Virus record (IMG/VR): IMGVR_UViG_2882504083_000001
Location: 1 to 64,000 of that record
Reading direction: 5' to 3' (one strand)
Origin: a virus
Taxonomy: Duplodnaviria > Caudoviricetes
Length of the DNA: 64,000 nucleotides
The position numbers and the translations under genes are program-made. Within the stretch, counting starts at the first letter, position 1, and every line of letters starts with the position of its first letter. Positions 3,040 to 60,456 of the stretch are shown one piece after another. Under the pieces are notes generated by a model. It was not told the origin of the DNA. It saw only the letters and a program-made list of their open reading frames with translations, and did no database searches.

Positions 3040-3438
3040 TTAACTTCGCTTATATTGCTTACTATCTCTTTCAGAAGGCCTTCCTTTTTTCTTTGCTGAA
3101 CGATTGTGTTTAATTCCGAGACTAGAAAGATATTCGAATGTCGGTGGGTTAAAAATGTCTCCGTGAAACGCGAGATAAACAGAAGTGTAGCAGATACAAA
3201 GTCCTTTTTTCTCTAAAGCCTTATGAACATGAGCGATTGGTTTTTTTATTCCAATGGCGCGTATCGCATCTATAAGTTCCTGGCCATGCAAGGGTTTGTC
3301 GCTCGCCAAATTCGAGTTTGTTTCCATGTTTTTGTTATTTTCCACATAAGCATTTCGTTCGAAAAAGACGGGAATTCCGTTTTGAATGCGTTTTATGATC
3401 CGAATTGGGATTCGAAGGTTAAGACTTTTAGATTGCAT
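3040..3438 (-). CDS. small basic putative DNA-binding (Cro-like) protein
   Basis: Divergent from XRE gene; helical core and basic tail KKKGRPS; alternative start ATG 3327. Confidence 0.45.
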   Translation of the reverse strand: MQSKSLNLRIPIRIIKRIQNGIPVFFERNAYVENNKNMETNSNLASDKPLHGQELIDAIRAIGIKKPIAHVHKALEKKGLCICYTSVYLAFHGDIFNPPTFEYLSSLGIKHNRSAKKKGRPSERDSKQYKRS

Positions 3439-3504
3439 AATTATACTTTTAAAATTTACTTACCCTGAATTTAAGAAACGACTCTTATGTTTATAAAAGC
3501 ATAA

Positions 3505-3520
3505 TATGCGTTAACGCATA
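3505..3520. promoter_or_regulatory. perfect 16-bp palindrome TATGCGTTAACGCATA, candidate operator
   Basis: Lies between divergent genes; GCATAA half-sites also at 3435, 3499, 3516, 3546. Confidence 0.6.
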
Positions 3521-3543
3521 AATCAACAAAAAAATATCCGCAG

Positions 3544-3924
3544 ATGCATAATTTTGACATTTCAATTCAGCTCCGAAAATTGATGAAAATCAGAGGTTGG
3601 ACACAGGAAGAACTCGCGAAAATTGGAGGAGTAAACCAGTCGTCGATTAGTCGATATATGCAAGGCGCTCTTCCGGCCTTGGATTTTATTATAAATTTAT
3701 ATAAGAATAAAAGAGTCGATCCGATTATCTTCGTTCGAGATTTCGAGGAAGATACCGTAAAATTTGATGTTATTGGTGAGCGATTGGTTGAGGATGTCTC
3801 GCAGTTCCTTCGTTTTTTGAAAAACTCACCGGATGCTTTGGAGTTATTTTGGAAAATTTATAATCTGGATGAAGTAGGGAGAAAAGCTGTTATTGCTTTC
3901 GTAGATAGAATCCTAGAGGAATAA
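3544..3924 (+). CDS. XRE-family HTH transcriptional regulator
   Basis: LRKLMKIRGWTQEELAKIGGVNQSSISRYMQG is a classic HTH_3 pattern. Confidence 0.9.
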   Translation: MHNFDISIQLRKLMKIRGWTQEELAKIGGVNQSSISRYMQGALPALDFIINLYKNKRVDPIIFVRDFEEDTVKFDVIGERLVEDVSQFLRFLKNSPDALELFWKIYNLDEVGRKAVIAFVDRILEE

Positions 3925-4807
3925 AGGACTTCTCGCTGTTTGCAAGATAGCAATAAATCTCATCTGTTGTTAGTTCGGAGTTTATTTGTAAGTGAGTGAA
4001 GTTTTGAATAATTCTCGCGACAACATTTTTTCTCAACCGAAAAAGGGCTCTTTGGTAGCTAACGGAATCAACTTTTCTGTAAATGAAAATATTCGTTTTT
4101 GCAACAATTGAATTTGTTTGAATTAAGTTCTCGAAGCCTGAGGTTTCAAAAAGATTGATTCGTGTGATCCCTATAGACCATATTGCAGTAGCGATTGTGC
4201 ATCCGATCGGTGCAATGAAATTATACTCTGGAAGGCCGTAGAATTTTAACAAAACTGAAAAAACTCCAATAAAGCAAAGCCACAGGAAAACTCCGACGGA
4301 AATATAAACAATACGAACTCGATCCAGTCCTCTTCTTCTTTTAAATCCTAAACATAACACAAAAACTGAATATAAGAGACTCAAGACTCCACCAATTACG
4401 AAATAATCGTAGAGGAACCCGGATTCAAAAAATAATTTTGATTCGGAGATTTTCGCGTTTTTTATATAGTAATCGGAAAAACTAAATGTTACAAGCGGGA
4501 GGATATATCCTAAAAGAATCAAATAATTGCATACTTTTGAGAGTTCTTTATCAAACACATAGGGGTAGATGAATCGAACGAGGAGTAAGGGGCATGCGAT
4601 CATCGGCAAAGTCATAGCCCGTGCCCAAAGTAAAGTATTGCCGGGGAAAACAAATGGAATCGCGAATAACGTATCCCAAACACCTATTAAGACGCAAAGC
4701 GCGCCAAAATCGCTGAACTCGCGTCTTTGGCGGACCGCAAAGAGGATGTATAACCCCAAAGAAAAATTAAATACTGAAGTGCTAAATAAAATTGCAGATG
4801 TTTCCAA
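3890..4807 (-). CDS. HisKA_7TM-like membrane sensor domain protein without kinase domain
   Basis: About seven hydrophobic segments with the typical N-terminal pattern (FNFSLGLYIL...FGALC...W); short cytoplasmic tail with no H-box or ATPase motifs. Confidence 0.75.
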   Translation of the reverse strand: METSAILFSTSVFNFSLGLYILFAVRQRREFSDFGALCVLIGVWDTLFAIPFVFPGNTLLWARAMTLPMIACPLLLVRFIYPYVFDKELSKVCNYLILLGYILPLVTFSFSDYYIKNAKISESKLFFESGFLYDYFVIGGVLSLLYSVFVLCLGFKRRRGLDRVRIVYISVGVFLWLCFIGVFSVLLKFYGLPEYNFIAPIGCTIATAIWSIGITRINLFETSGFENLIQTNSIVAKTNIFIYRKVDSVSYQRALFRLRKNVVARIIQNFTHLQINSELTTDEIYCYLANSEKSFIPLGFYLRKQ

Positions 4808-4831
4808 GGTTTTTCCCTGGAAAACATTAAC

Positions 4832-5476
4832 TTAACTCTGACGTATTTTTGCAATAATTTTCGCATAATCCGACACTTGTATTGCCCATTCGGTCGGTCG
4901 AATTTCTCCCGCTTCCAATTTGCCATAGTTTGGGTAGTAAATTGTATATGGATGATCCTTTGATTCGACCGTTCCGAAACGATTGTAGAGCCTACCTACG
5001 GACGGCCTTTCAATATCATAAAGACCAAATGTCGCGTCAAAGTTTTGTTGGACTGTATATTCAGCGCTCATAACCAAAACTCTTAATCCTGCGGTCATGT
5101 TTGAAGCAGCAAACGAATTCATTTCAGAAATATTTCCGTTGCCCAAATCTACTTTTTCTTCAGAATCTTTTCTTATTGCATATTCGATTGGAAGTCCTTC
5201 TGGACCTCGCACTAAGACGCGTGACGTTGCTACTATATTTTGTTCATCGTCAATTCCAATGAAATACTGGCTCAGGCCGTTTAAATCAAATCTTCGATCA
5301 AAATCGGCATCATAGCCTACATAACCGAGCTTTGAATACTGGTCTTGTACGAATGTTCGTGCCTTCTCAACTAATCGTGCGTTCGTTTCGTAATTGCACA
5401 TTAGAAAGAGGGTTGCTTGCTTTTCGGGGTTTTGATGTTTCGTTGTTTGTGGTTCTTTGAGTTTAATATGTGACAT
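4832..5476 (-). CDS. GNAT-fold acyltransferase, FeeM (N-acyl amino acid synthase)/LuxI-like
   Basis: FVQDQYSKLGY, IVATSRVLVRGPEGLPIE, ISEMNSFA and RLYNRFG motifs resemble the FeeM/acyl-HSL synthase fold. Confidence 0.6.
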   Translation of the reverse strand: MSHIKLKEPQTTKHQNPEKQATLFLMCNYETNARLVEKARTFVQDQYSKLGYVGYDADFDRRFDLNGLSQYFIGIDDEQNIVATSRVLVRGPEGLPIEYAIRKDSEEKVDLGNGNISEMNSFAASNMTAGLRVLVMSAEYTVQQNFDATFGLYDIERPSVGRLYNRFGTVESKDHPYTIYYPNYGKLEAGEIRPTEWAIQVSDYAKIIAKIRQS

Positions 5477-5494
5477 AATATAAATATGTCACAT
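5468..5494. promoter_or_regulatory. inverted repeat ATGTGACATA-N7-TATGTCACAT over the acyltransferase start codon
   Basis: Perfect 10-bp arms read directly. Confidence 0.65.
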
Positions 5495-5675
5495 TATTTT
5501 CATAATTCAAGCTTTTGGTAAATCCTTTCTATATTTTTTCTTAAAGGGTTTTGCGGGTATTTAAGGAATTTCGAATATTTGGTTTATGTAAGGCGCTGAC
5601 GCCGACGTTTTCCATGTTATGTTCTCCTAACCGCTAAAAAAATCGATAGTTTGCCGGACTAATTTGATTCCCGAA

Positions 5676-5710: not shown

Positions 5711-6166
5711 GTGAAATTCGACGAGAATCAGCCATTCCGATCTAAGATATTATCCGATCGAGTATACCCTTTTATAAATCCAGTCCGCGCGGGGTTCCCA
5801 TCGCCCGCAGCGGAATATATCGAAAGCGAGCTTAACCCTATCGATCTTCTCGTACCGAATCCGGATTCCTCTTTTTTCGGCAAGGTTCTTGGAAATTCAA
5901 TGGAGGATGTTTTCGTTCGAAATGGCGACCTTATCATCGTAGACAGATCGATAGAACCGCGTAACGGACACGTCGTGGTCGGCACATACGAAGGAGCGTT
6001 TCTTACGAAAATCCTCCAAATCGAAGGAAAAAGACGAACACTCGTTTCCGGAAATCCGCTCTATCCCCCGATTCCAATCACGAACGAAAACGAATTCCAA
6101 CTTTGGGGAGTAGTTAGGTGCAGTTGTCACGATTTACTTGGAGGGTGGGGTGTACGCCCTCGTTGA
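5711..6166 (+). CDS. umuD: UmuD-like S24 autopeptidase
   Basis: VRAGFPSPA cleavage region, GNSM catalytic Ser, FLTK catalytic Lys. Confidence 0.92.
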   Translation: MKFDENQPFRSKILSDRVYPFINPVRAGFPSPAAEYIESELNPIDLLVPNPDSSFFGKVLGNSMEDVFVRNGDLIIVDRSIEPRNGHVVVGTYEGAFLTKILQIEGKRRTLVSGNPLYPPIPITNENEFQLWGVVRCSCHDLLGGWGVRPR

Positions 6167-7412
6167 TTGTAATTCGTTTTACTGTTCGTGCGAGCGTCTT
6201 TTCCGTCCGGAACTTCGAGACCGTCCGGTCATCGTGCTTTCAAACAACGATGGTTGCGTAATTTCGCGAAGTTCCGAAGCGAAAGCGATCGGAGTTAAAA
6301 TGGGTGAACCTGCGTTTATGCGAAGAGAATTCTTTGCCGCGAATAACATTCACGTTTTTTCTTCGAACTACGCGTTGTATGGCGACCTCTCGCGACGCGT
6401 GATGAACCAATTGCGCGACTTTTCTCCGGAAATTGAGGTCTACTCGATCGACGAAGCGTTTTTAGGACTTAGCGGTTTCCCAAAAATTACGTTACCCGCG
6501 ATCGCGAATAACATTTTTCAAAGAATCCCGCGAAACACCGGAATTCCGGTAAGCGTCGGCATCGGACCAACGAAAACTCTTTCGAAGATCGCGAACCACC
6601 TCGCGAAGAAGAGAGAAGAATACGGCGGCGTTTTTATAATCGATTCCGAAGCCGCGCGAGAAACAGCGCTCAAACAAGTTTCCGTCGCAGACATTTGGGG
6701 AATCGGTCCCGCATTCTCGCGCAAACTCGAAGCGGTCGGGATTATGAACGCTTGGGAATTTGCGAACGCGAACAAGCATTGGATCAGAAAACATTTAACG
6801 GTCGTCGGTGCGAGAATCGCGTATGAGCTAAACGCGATTGAATGTTCTACACTCGTAACGATTGACCCTGCAAAAAAGACGATCGCGATCGCCCGGTCGT
6901 TCAGCTCAATGCGTGACTCGCTGGAGTCTTTGGAGGGTGCAGTCGCAACGTTTGCGACGCGCGCAGCATTTAATCTTCGAAAACAAGACGGTTACGCGAA
7001 TTTAGTCCGCGTCTTTATACATACGAACGCTCACAGACCGGATCTGGATCAATACGCGACAAACATCCCGATTCCGTTGCCCGTACAAATGCAAGATACA
7101 ATGAAAATCGTCCGCTATGCGCTGCTTGGCCTACGGCGGATCTACAGACCGGGACTTCAATACAAAAAAGCGGGCGTGATCCTGGACCAAATCCGAACGA
7201 AGGGCGATCAGCAAGACGACCTCTTTAGCGACTTTGATCGAAGTCGTGATGAGCAAATTTCGAGCGCGATGGATCGGATAAACGGAAAGTTCGGAAAAGA
7301 TAAAATCAAACTCGCGGTCGCAAGCAAGCAGAACGCGTGGTCGCTCCGCCAAGAAAACCTTTCTCCGCGATATACAACAAGATGGGAGGACATTCCGCTT
7401 GTGCTATCATAA
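6138..7412 (+). CDS. umuC: Y-family DNA polymerase V subunit
   Basis: ALVDCNSFYCSCE, VLSNNDGC, YSIDEAF and C-terminal LSPRYTTRW. Confidence 0.95.
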   Translation: MEGGVYALVDCNSFYCSCERLFRPELRDRPVIVLSNNDGCVISRSSEAKAIGVKMGEPAFMRREFFAANNIHVFSSNYALYGDLSRRVMNQLRDFSPEIEVYSIDEAFLGLSGFPKITLPAIANNIFQRIPRNTGIPVSVGIGPTKTLSKIANHLAKKREEYGGVFIIDSEAARETALKQVSVADIWGIGPAFSRKLEAVGIMNAWEFANANKHWIRKHLTVVGARIAYELNAIECSTLVTIDPAKKTIAIARSFSSMRDSLESLEGAVATFATRAAFNLRKQDGYANLVRVFIHTNAHRPDLDQYATNIPIPLPVQMQDTMKIVRYALLGLRRIYRPGLQYKKAGVILDQIRTKGDQQDDLFSDFDRSRDEQISSAMDRINGKFGKDKIKLAVASKQNAWSLRQENLSPRYTTRWEDIPLVLS

Positions 7413-8115
7413 CTCGCTTACCGCTTCTTCGCAGAAGTTGTCTGCGCGATTTAGCGCAGGACTGATCGAACCAGCGGATTTTAAACCGATCTTTCACGAA
7501 CATGGTTACGAACATAAACCGCGCCCTCTTGTAATTCGTGAAGATGAAAATCGATTTTTAGGGGCAGGCTGGGGACTGATCCCCAAATGGGTGAAAAGTG
7601 TTGAAGAAGCGAAACTGTCGCAAAATCGAACATTGAACGCAAAATCAGAAACGATTTTTGAACTACCTTCCTTTCGCGAAGCAATTCTATATAGAAGATG
7701 CCTGATTCCTTCGACTGGATTTTACGACAGCCAAGAGGTTCACCAAAAAACGTATCCCTATCGAGTTTTTTTAAAACATGAAGAGATCTTTTCTTTGGCG
7801 GGGATCTGGGAAGAATGGGAAAATCCGGAGACTGGCGAAATAAAAAAAACGTATTCTATGCTCACAACTCCGCCGAATCGGAAATTCTCGCAAATTCATA
7901 CACGAATGCCTTTGATTCTTCCGCGAGAAAAAGAAGAGATTTGGATCGATTCGGCAATGAAAAGTCGAAAGGATATTGAACCTCTTCTCAAGATATATCC
8001 AGAAGAAAACTTAGATTTCTATACAATCCGGAAATTCCGTCCAGGTGACAACTACGACGAAGACATCCTAAAAAAAGTAGCATACGAAGAACTTAGCCAG
8101 CAGGAGCTTTTTTGA
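7399..8115 (+). CDS. SOS response-associated peptidase (SRAP/YedK family)
   Basis: MC N-terminus, WGLIPKW, TLNAKSE, RRCLIPSTGFY, IHTRMPLIL. Confidence 0.92.
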   Translation: MCYHNSLTASSQKLSARFSAGLIEPADFKPIFHEHGYEHKPRPLVIREDENRFLGAGWGLIPKWVKSVEEAKLSQNRTLNAKSETIFELPSFREAILYRRCLIPSTGFYDSQEVHQKTYPYRVFLKHEEIFSLAGIWEEWENPETGEIKKTYSMLTTPPNRKFSQIHTRMPLILPREKEEIWIDSAMKSRKDIEPLLKIYPEENLDFYTIRKFRPGDNYDEDILKKVAYEELSQQELF

Positions 8116-59706: not shown

Positions 59707-60456
59707 ATGAAAATAATTCCCATTTGTTCCGGGAAGGGTGGAGTCGGAAAAACCACTAACACCATATTCCTCGGTCAAACTTTGTCTTATTTAGGCTACA
59801 AGGTGTTACTTATTGACTTCGATTTTAATCGAAGCTTGAGCAAGTTCACACTTTCCCGCTTCGGAGTAAACGAGCAAGAGACAACTTTTAAAAACTCATT
59901 TAACATGCTTTTTGAGGCGGATGACTATTCAAAATACATATTCAAAACAGGCGAGAATTTTGATTTTATTCCAACCATCGAACGCCTCAAAAAGGTTGAT
60001 TTAGAATTTTATGATGACCCTAGGCTTAAATATAGATTCGAAAATCTGTTACGCAAACTCGATTACGACTTCATTTTACTTGATCTACATAACGTTGTAA
60101 ATGTTGTTCTTCTAGCTGCCATTCACAGCGCAGACCATATTATTTCTCCAATGGAATATGGGGATTGGGGACAAGAAGGAACCGATGCAATGTATAAAGT
60201 TTTTAAGGAAGTCGAATCAAGCTCATCCAAAAAAATCAAATTTACAGTCGTACCTTCAAGAGTATCTAAAAGGAGAATTGAAGACCTGATTGAAGTTTGC
60301 GAGCATAACGGTCTTTCTGTTAGTAAGTTTGCAAACTATAATGACGATATCGTTCATTCTGCTTCGAACTTAGGAGAATTTTTAAATCCCAAAAAACATT
60401 CCGCATTCGAGCGATTTTTAGTTTTGGCGCATGAGGTTTCAAATGGCACAAAATAA
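59707..60456 (+). CDS. parA: ParA family partition ATPase
   Basis: KGGVGKTT deviant Walker A, LLIDFD, FILLD. Confidence 0.95.
   Translation: MKIIPICSGKGGVGKTTNTIFLGQTLSYLGYKVLLIDFDFNRSLSKFTLSRFGVNEQETTFKNSFNMLFEADDYSKYIFKTGENFDFIPTIERLKKVDLEFYDDPRLKYRFENLLRKLDYDFILLDLHNVVNVVLLAAIHSADHIISPMEYGDWGQEGTDAMYKVFKEVESSSSKKIKFTVVPSRVSKRRIEDLIEVCEHNGLSVSKFANYNDDIVHSASNLGEFLNPKKHSAFERFLVLAHEVSNGTK

Follow-up and report, generated by a model that had tools for sequence, protein, structure and literature searches.

A FeeM-like acyltransferase, a kinase-less HisKA_7TM-type sensor and an XRE regulator form a mobile cassette in Leptospira: a candidate make-and-sense circuit

We analysed a window of 64,000 nt (positions 1–64,000 of the virus record IMGVR_UViG_2882504083_000001) that contains, at positions 3040–5494, a four-gene cassette encoding a putative acyltransferase (hereafter the synthase), a seven-transmembrane (7TM) protein, an XRE-type helix-turn-helix (HTH) regulator and a small basic protein. 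The features of the cassette are as follows.

4832–5476, minus strand: FeeM-like GNAT-fold acyltransferase of the NCBIfam LBL_2463 family, proposed N-acyl amide synthase (214 aa)
3890–4807, minus strand: kinase-less HisKA_7TM-type seven-helix sensor (305 aa), with a basic, predicted cytoplasmic tail at residues 216–305
3544–3924, plus strand: XRE-type HTH regulator with a conserved helical C-terminal domain of ~50 residues (126 aa)
3040–3438, minus strand: small basic, DNA-binding-like protein (132 aa, pI 10.0), divergent from the XRE gene, fourth conserved member of the cassette and possible Cro-like or output regulator
3505–3520, no strand: perfect 16-bp palindrome TATGCGTTAACGCATA in the divergent promoter region, probable (predicted) operator of the XRE dimer
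3485–3504, no strand: imperfect palindrome TTATGTTTAT/AAAAGCATAA read from the sequence, with 8 of 10 positions complementary, possible second operator
5468–5494, no strand: inverted repeat ATGTGACATA-N7-TATGTCACAT across the synthase start codon
2716–3027, minus strand: 103-codon open reading frame (ORF) directly downstream of the small basic gene, of uncertain membership

The synthase and 7TM genes lie on the same strand with 24 bp between them, and the XRE and 7TM genes overlap tail to tail by 35 bp (3890–3924). The spacer between the divergent XRE and small basic genes is 105 bp long and contains the perfect and the imperfect palindrome side by side. The leftward unit divergent from the XRE gene consists of two small genes only, and no family match was obtained for the 103-codon ORF. 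An earlier note, made from the DNA letters, had described this gene content together with the gap, the overlap and a palindromic operator, and all of these features were present in the ORF list and the sequence. It had also called the carrier a plasmid-prophage. The cassette is located on contig C1 (74,771 bp), which is probably circular because its ends share a direct overlap of 77 bp (closed circle, ~74.7 kb). The contig encodes ParA (59707–60456), a large terminase, a tail tube initiator and a polyvalent methylase protein and carries an IS66 element. The overlap, ParA, the terminase and the tail tube initiator agree with the description in the note, and the carrier is probably a circular phage-plasmid of pathogenic-clade Leptospira.

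The synthase matched the NCBIfam LBL_2463 family (NF047533) with 150 bits against a cut-off of 110, and PHROGs also contains a family for it. In Pfam, only a sub-threshold match to DUF7270 was obtained, and Autoind_synth (PF00765) gave no match. The AlphaFold model of the synthase, which was built on an alignment of 54 relatives, had a predicted local distance difference test score (pLDDT) of 92. FeeM (2G0B) was the top Protein Data Bank (PDB) match of this model in Foldseek (E 3.8e-8) and also in an exhaustive VIA search of 48,161 chains (Z 16.6 over 172 residues, root-mean-square deviation 3.0), where the next row scored 14.6. The VIA search gave 223 chains at Z ≥8, and all 50 rows listed were GNAT-fold proteins; the confidence of the model and these matches together assign the GNAT α/β fold to the synthase. 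The N-acyl-homoserine lactone (AHL) synthases of the LuxI type aligned across the whole domain (residues 19–214), with TofI, LasI and RpaI at Z 13.9, 13.8 and 13.4, respectively, and the set of TofI, LasI, RpaI and MesI spanning 12.1–13.9. The ESM Atlas model of the synthase grouped with FeeM clusters at template modelling (TM) scores of 0.65–0.67. Moreover, the synthase-family profile aligned with the Pfam-positive FeeM domain encoded in the genome of a Leptospiraceae saprophyte (L060:1477–2031; hhalign 94.2%, E 1e-7), and weak FeeM matches were obtained for 8 of the 54 relatives (best E 3.9e-4). Searches of PDB sequences with the family alignments gave nothing or a short GNAT motif only, and a search of BFVD with the model gave generic GNATs only; rank 28 was a phage protein whose annotation is AHL synthase.

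Classical GNATs carry a Q/RxxGxG/A acetyl-CoA motif, and the FeeM/LuxI branch uses acyl carrier protein-bound acyl groups (acyl-ACP). The motif was absent from the β4–α3 junction of the synthase (~124–132, SNMTAGLRV), which would fit a member of the acyl-ACP-using branch. Taken together, these model and profile comparisons make "FeeM/LuxI-like GNAT", the name that the earlier note had used, a fair label for predicted fold and remote homology; a threshold-level family assignment, in the form of a direct Pfam match, did not follow. The structure prediction that the note had proposed as a check of this label thus gave a confident model with FeeM as the closest fold.

GNAT toxins with HTH antitoxins exist, and the cassette could be read as a type II toxin–antitoxin or abortive infection module in which the membrane protein is an accessory. 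The XRE protein indeed gave weak matches to antitoxin-type HTH models and to HTH components in PADLOC; however, these matches cover the HTH alone and lie far under the cut-offs. The synthase, the 7TM protein and the small basic protein had no match in PADLOC, and no toxin family was matched. Furthermore, the closest fold of the enzyme is FeeM, its acetyl-CoA motif is absent, and its constant partner is the 7TM gene, or a kinase gene in distant relatives. The combination of an acetyl-CoA-binding toxin with a ribbon-helix-helix or DUF1778-type antitoxin was not found in the cassette. We therefore regard a toxin–antitoxin function as very improbable.

In regards to the 7TM protein, hydropathy analysis and the positive-inside rule predicted seven helices with the N-terminus outside and the C-terminus inside. 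The sensor part is wholly membrane-embedded with short outer loops and is followed by the 90-residue tail, which gave no domain match; the protein ends at residue 305, and neither HisKA nor HATPase_c was found in it. No ligand is known for HisKA_7TM, a widespread membrane sensor domain of kinases and of GGDEF, HD and SpoIIE proteins from both bacteria and archaea (PMC5847659, PMC6944256). The profile of the 7TM family aligned over 222 columns with the HisKA_7TM domains encoded beside distant relatives of the synthase (hhalign 99.4%, E 2e-21). The model of the 7TM protein (pLDDT 76) matched Atlas HisKA_7TM clusters fused to HisKA/HATPase_c, GAF, GGDEF, SpoIIE or HD with TM scores of 0.66–0.72. 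Judged by profiles and a predicted fold, the 7TM protein is genuinely homologous to the sensor domain HisKA_7TM and lacks a kinase, and the earlier reading of the gene as HisKA_7TM-like without kinase output holds, although the Pfam model missed the protein. The possibility that the tail is a degenerate dimerization and histidine phosphotransfer domain was rejected, because hhalign against a full kinase (L067) aligned the membrane part only. A kinship with receptors of the G-protein-coupled type (GPCRs) was not concluded: the Foldseek rows from the PDB were weak (E ~3e-3, TM 0.35–0.52) and were read as a generic seven-helix bundle.

We investigated the linkage of these genes in 22 species genomes of the genus Leptospira. 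Matches to the synthase family were found in 19 of them (1 to 7 each, at least two in most), and none in the other three. A full-length 7TM gene was located within 1.8 kb of 55 of the 61 synthase genes (merged searches), and in the fetched loci it nearly always lay directly downstream of the synthase gene on the same strand. Among the six synthase genes without a full-length 7TM gene, two were beside 7TM gene fragments and one was at a contig end. Nearly every fetched locus contained an HTH gene of 126–150 aa, which either converged with the 7TM gene or was located immediately upstream of the synthase gene (on the same strand in 8 of 34 triads). For the synthase, 7TM and HTH proteins, pairwise distances across the 34 non-identical triads correlated with r 0.80–0.90, which indicates that the three genes were inherited as a unit and not co-adaptation as such. 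The co-occurrence and co-variation that the earlier note had proposed to test on Leptospira prophages were thus observed across the genus, and the genes were linked in other genomes.

The genus contained 83 full-length 7TM genes, of which 27 were without a synthase gene. A coordinate comparison placed an HTH gene of the regulator family next to at least 21 of these 27 orphans. Since most of the orphan receptors keep their regulator, the receptor–regulator pair is the tightest unit, as a direct relay from the 7TM protein to the XRE protein predicts. The genome from which the window comes carries on contig C2 a second full module (L069:9452–14282), which is flanked by a broken 7TM copy interrupted by TAG and by an extra, synthase-less pair of 7TM and HTH genes.

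The cassettes were carried by 22 Leptospira plasmids, by LE1-like prophage records and at many chromosomal sites, and their neighbours varied (insertion sequence elements, umuDC, DUF1016). These results indicate that the cassette is a self-contained mobile unit carried as cargo and is not specific to phages. A tblastn search of phage records with the 7TM protein of the window gave nothing, yet LE1-like records hold distant 7TM homologues beside a synthase gene; no relatives were found in a search of the IMG/VR viral contigs. In a sample of Spirochaetota, the synthase family was found only in Leptospiraceae, namely in 15 of 18 genomes of the genus of the window and in 7 of 20 genomes of a second genus. 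A third genus of this family gave only proteins in which a FeeM domain is fused to a cyclic-nucleotide-binding (cNMP) domain.

This distribution bears on whether the product leaves the cell. An aminolipid-like product might stay in the producer, with the 7TM and XRE proteins monitoring the membrane or feeding back on the enzyme, and cell-to-cell communication would then not take place. Long-chain N-acyl amides partition into membranes, and a sensor that is buried in the membrane with short outer loops suits such private sensing. FeeM is also related to OlsB-type lipid N-acyltransferases, and Pfam Acetyltransf_5 was found on related clusters. However, core lipid functions are rarely multi-copy mobile cargo and are rarely missing in some species, as the synthase family is in 3 of the 22 genomes. 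We consider this explanation unlikely.

Beyond the genus, the family profile was searched exhaustively against 1.8 billion representatives, and 65 synthase relatives only were obtained. In all five readable metagenomic relatives (~20–29% identity), a HisKA_7TM gene follows the synthase gene. One relative (L067) has as its partner a complete HisKA_7TM-HisKA-HATPase_c kinase, near which response regulator and HTH genes are located; in another, the partner has the architecture HisKA_7TM-GAF-HisKA-HATPase_c and is accompanied by a response regulator. Two further partners, with HisKA_7TM at 64.6 bits (L035) and with HisKA_7TM-GAF (L036), are cut off by contig ends. Relative L068 shows the order HTH, enzyme and kinase-less HisKA_7TM as in the Leptospira triad, and its HTH protein matched the profile of the Leptospira regulator over the full length (E 3e-16). 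A 443-aa gene that touches the contig end lies directly downstream of the synthase gene of relative P0052.

The kinase partners also bear on a quite different function. FeeM-type synthases were found through antibacterial clones of environmental DNA, and the product of the cassette might, like that of the first FeeM-type clones, be a long-chain N-acyl amino acid antibiotic against which the 7TM protein, under XRE control, provides self-protection or export. Carriage on plasmids and prophages and the many diverged paralogues are as in bacteriocin loci. However, the homology of the 7TM protein spans all seven helices of a sensor module known from fusions with signalling outputs, its counterpart in the distant relatives is a complete kinase, and the orphan 7TM genes retain the regulator and not the enzyme. 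An antibiotic with its immunity protein is thus quite an unlikely explanation of the cassette.

The XRE protein matched Pfam HTH_3 (PF01381) with 34.5 bits against a cut-off of 23, which identifies it as a protein with an XRE/Cro-C1 HTH. An iterated profile gathered the regulators of all modules into one family that comprises the HTH and a conserved helical C-terminal domain. We also compared this C-terminal domain with the HTH-HisKA protein encoded at a distant locus and rejected a kinship, since the HTH region alone aligned. The small basic protein had no family match in Pfam or NCBIfam; 13 of its 14 homologues in the genus fall within ~2.5 kb of a synthase/7TM module.

The palindrome at 3505–3520 was the sole match in the 64-kb window at ≤3 mismatches, and in a control with 100 shuffles, 14 gave at least one match. 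Orthologous loci also have a palindrome, whose distance upstream of the XRE start is unchanged and whose sequence differs with compensating changes. It reads AATATACAT-AA-ATGTATATT where the recognition helix is KQPTVSRY, TTATTCA-N4-TGAATAA where the helix is SQGTISRY, and TATGCGTT/AACGCATA with NQSSISRY in the window. A real operator for an XRE dimer would be expected to keep its position and to change its sequence with the recognition helix, as this palindrome does. The palindrome is therefore the probable operator, as predicted from these comparisons.

A second conserved element lies at the start of the synthase gene. The inverted repeat GACATAAT-N-ATTATGTC was present at this position in ~24 of 34 very divergent Leptospira modules and was absent from the distant relatives of the cassette. 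Three sites were found in the 4.4-Mb genome, two of which are the two synthase starts; the third GACATA-N-TATGTC site is at G000:C22:272926–272945. The left arm of the repeat is an extended −10-like element of the TGnCATAAT type. In the typical module, a TTGAAA-like hexamer is located 16–17 bp upstream of this arm and the ATG 6–7 bp downstream; in the window (5468–5520), the hexamer TTGAAT is followed after 16 bp by the extended −10-like TGnCATATT and, 6 bp downstream, by the ATG. This layout, which recurs in most Leptospira modules, suggests that the synthase mRNA may be leaderless. The repeat would, as an RNA hairpin, hide the AUG (−12.3 kcal/mol, z −3.6); if the −10-like promoter is used, the mRNA would be leaderless and the hairpin could not form. 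The synthase–receptor operon is probably also under control through this conserved inverted repeat.

The FeeM-like fold, the kinase-less sensor, the gene linkage, the co-divergence and the kinase-paired relatives favour the making and sensing of an acylated molecule with a relay to the XRE protein. We propose that the cassette is a make-and-sense circuit composed of a FeeM-like enzyme, a HisKA_7TM sensor and a dedicated XRE partner controlling a small divergent switch, and we put the probability of this reading at about one half. The chemistry, the relation between ligand and receptor, the contact between tail and regulator, and the output may be pictured as follows. The cytoplasmic enzyme would join an amine or amino acid to a fatty acyl group, whose donor is probably acyl-ACP, and the resulting N-acyl amide would be lipid-like and partition into membranes. 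The co-transcribed 7TM protein would bind this product inside its helix bundle, as its linkage to the synthase gene and the kinase-fused relatives suggest. Because the 7TM protein has no kinase, we propose that its tail relays the signal to the helical C-terminal domain of the XRE protein, which would thereby be held at or released from the membrane. The operator anatomy suggests that an XRE dimer on the palindrome would set the balance of the two divergent promoters, and the small basic protein is likely a downstream effector or counter-regulator. Several signal specificities and eavesdropping receptors are suggested by the diverged paralogous cassettes and the synthase-less receptor–regulator pairs.

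Several observations weigh against this circuit. The synthase of the window did not match Pfam FeeM (PF21926, gathering score 27 bits) at E up to 1, and the Z scores of the LuxI-type synthases are level with those of ordinary acetyltransferases (13–14.6). The 7TM protein of the window falls below the Pfam HisKA_7TM model (PF16927, 28.6 bits) and gave no match; its 76%-identical orthologue P0017 matches this model, and LE1-phage homologues and the paralogue in the same genome score 27 and 37.4 bits, respectively. Linked genes are expected to diverge together simply because their inheritance is shared. Among the three proteins, the synthase is conserved best, with a median identity of 33% versus 22% for the 7TM protein and 19% for the HTH protein, and diversification of signal specificity alone would predict a diversifying enzyme. 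Finally, the repeat at the synthase start is near-identical in modules whose regulators differ widely, so that the module's own XRE protein may not be its binder.

A more specific proposal goes further than the make-and-sense circuit. Pathogenic and intermediate Leptospira would possess an undescribed multi-paralogue system with an N-acyl amide autoinducer, a GPCR-shaped kinase-less receptor and a direct contact between the receptor tail and the XRE domain, whose cassettes and synthase-less "solos" are spread by phage-plasmids. We offer this full picture tentatively and regard it as doubtful in its entirety.

The earlier note had interpreted the locus as phage communication by an acylated signal, a non-peptide analogue of arbitrium. 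In such a system, the signal would count lysogens, and the XRE and small basic proteins would form a switch between lysis and lysogeny. Terminase and tail genes indeed accompany the cassette on its phage-plasmid, and LE1-like prophage records contain it as well. The divergent genes for the HTH and small basic proteins, together with their palindromic operator, resemble the CI/Cro layout, and both proteins of the divergent pair match PHROG families. Like arbitrium (AimP/AimR/AimX), the cassette offers a temperate element with a candidate signal producer, receptor and regulator; unlike arbitrium, it has no secreted peptide, TPR receptor or aimX-like output. No TPR or AimR match was found in the four cassette proteins, no small secreted-peptide gene was seen in 3040–5494, and neither the protein families nor an operator search of the window revealed a link from the cassette to lytic genes. 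The analogy is weak because the cassette is mobile cargo: the same unit recurs on 22 plasmids and at numerous sites in chromosomes, next to neighbours that differ, its orientation varies (with the HTH gene upstream of the synthase in 8 of 34 triads), and no second copy of the operator occurs in the window. Moreover, the leftward unit contains nothing beyond its two small genes, the distant relatives are ordinary two-component loci, and IMG/VR yielded no relative. An arbitrium-like role is therefore distinctly improbable. The FeeM/LuxI-like fold, the kinase-less sensor and the four-gene linkage of the earlier interpretation stand, and communication among phages to decide between lysis and lysogeny is not supported.

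We compared the proposed make-and-sense circuit with known systems. The synthase resembles FeeM (2G0B, PF21926) in having it as the closest fold, in profile homology, in size and in the lack of an acetyl-CoA motif; unlike FeeM, to which it is 12–14% identical, it belongs to a family of its own in NCBIfam (LBL_2463). We know of no description of FeeM with a 7TM sensor partner. LuxI-type AHL synthases (LasI, TofI, RpaI, MesI) likewise have a GNAT-derived fold, and the cassette shares with their systems a putative signal-making enzyme beside a receptor; its receptor is a membrane 7TM protein, whereas LuxR is cytoplasmic. In LuxM/LuxN, AinS/AinR and CqsA/CqsS, as in the cassette, the synthase gene adjoins the gene of a multi-pass membrane receptor, but the enzyme and sensor families of the cassette differ from those of LuxM/LuxN and CqsA/CqsS. 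N-acyl-cyclolysine of Bacteroidota, a recently recognised non-AHL N-acyl amide quorum signal as cited in PMC13419125, is a precedent for lipid amides as signals; unlike the genes for that signal, the synthase gene of the window has no gene for a ThiF-like cyclising enzyme beside it.

A parallel to the distant relatives has been reported from candidate phyla radiation (CPR) genomes, in which 18 LuxI homologues are encoded beside a sensory kinase and are candidate complete quorum systems (Bernard et al. 2020, PMC7567580). The distant relatives of the cassette similarly sit by HisKA_7TM histidine kinases and response regulators, and the pairing of a synthase with a sensor kinase is therefore not new. 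Unlike the CPR pairs, the Leptospira receptor lost or never had a kinase and is accompanied by a small basic protein and a dedicated XRE regulator; moreover, the system resides in a pathogenic-clade spirochaete and is carried by a phage-plasmid. What is new is the kinase-less receptor with a dedicated regulator, composed of an XRE HTH plus a further domain, and with the small basic protein; the multi-paralogue family with receptor–regulator solos; the conserved element at the enzyme start, a predicted promoter/operator; and the concentration in pathogenic-clade Leptospira on phage-plasmids. The literature gave no paper on LBL_2463 and, for LIC10906, a paralogue in the receptor family, only an entry in an expression table, where it is listed as induced in a mammalian-host model (PMC8638967).

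The partnership of HisKA_7TM with a FeeM-like synthase provides a concrete class of ligands to test. If the more specific proposal above is true, a first class of ligands would be assigned to the orphan HisKA_7TM sensors, and Leptospira would have its first genetically defined quorum-type circuit. Kinase-free signalling from a receptor to a transcription factor would also be an unusual form of bacterial signal transduction. To our knowledge, Leptospira lack LuxI, LuxM and LuxS. C8-AHL-like activity was reported in 2026 in saprophytic L. meyeri by a paper that identified no synthase gene and states that the genus has no LuxI-type synthase (PMC13515436). The link of this activity to the cassette is indirect, because the saprophytes gave FeeM-cNMP fusions only. 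One such fusion (L060:1477–2652, also in L061–L063) is a 391-aa protein with a FeeM domain (44.5 bits) and a cyclic-nucleotide-binding domain, encoded beside a SpoIIE phosphatase gene. The FeeM-cNMP fusion is a candidate producer of the AHL-like activity in L. meyeri.

Several neighbouring genes were also noted. The surroundings of the cassette in the window are cargo genes (umuDC, lipoproteins). An overlapping operon at 5711–8115 adjoins the cassette and encodes a umuD-like S24 peptidase, a umuC-type Y-family polymerase and an SRAP (YedK-like) protein; umuDC is also beside the orthologous cassettes of loci L011 and L026. Upstream of the second module on contig C2 are genes for an MHYT-PAS hybrid kinase (L069:6051–9083) and for an AAT-family protein (acyl-CoA:6-aminopenicillanic acid acyltransferase-like; L069:2760–4544), which might act as an amide hydrolase. 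An AraC-type (HTH_18) regulator of 307–399 aa is encoded within ~1 kb of the cassette at L001:7337–8536, L002:7224–8147 and L071:6252–7418. These loci are in LE1-like prophage records and the plasmid pLiSL41, and the L001 copy has a hydrophobic N-terminal half; the AraC-type regulator may be a further member or a target of the system. Furthermore, a protein of 71–93 aa that belongs to no assigned family and has the motif ...YKLE.LK.SM.L.D... recurs ~0.5–1 kb from modules L008, L013, L016 and L034.

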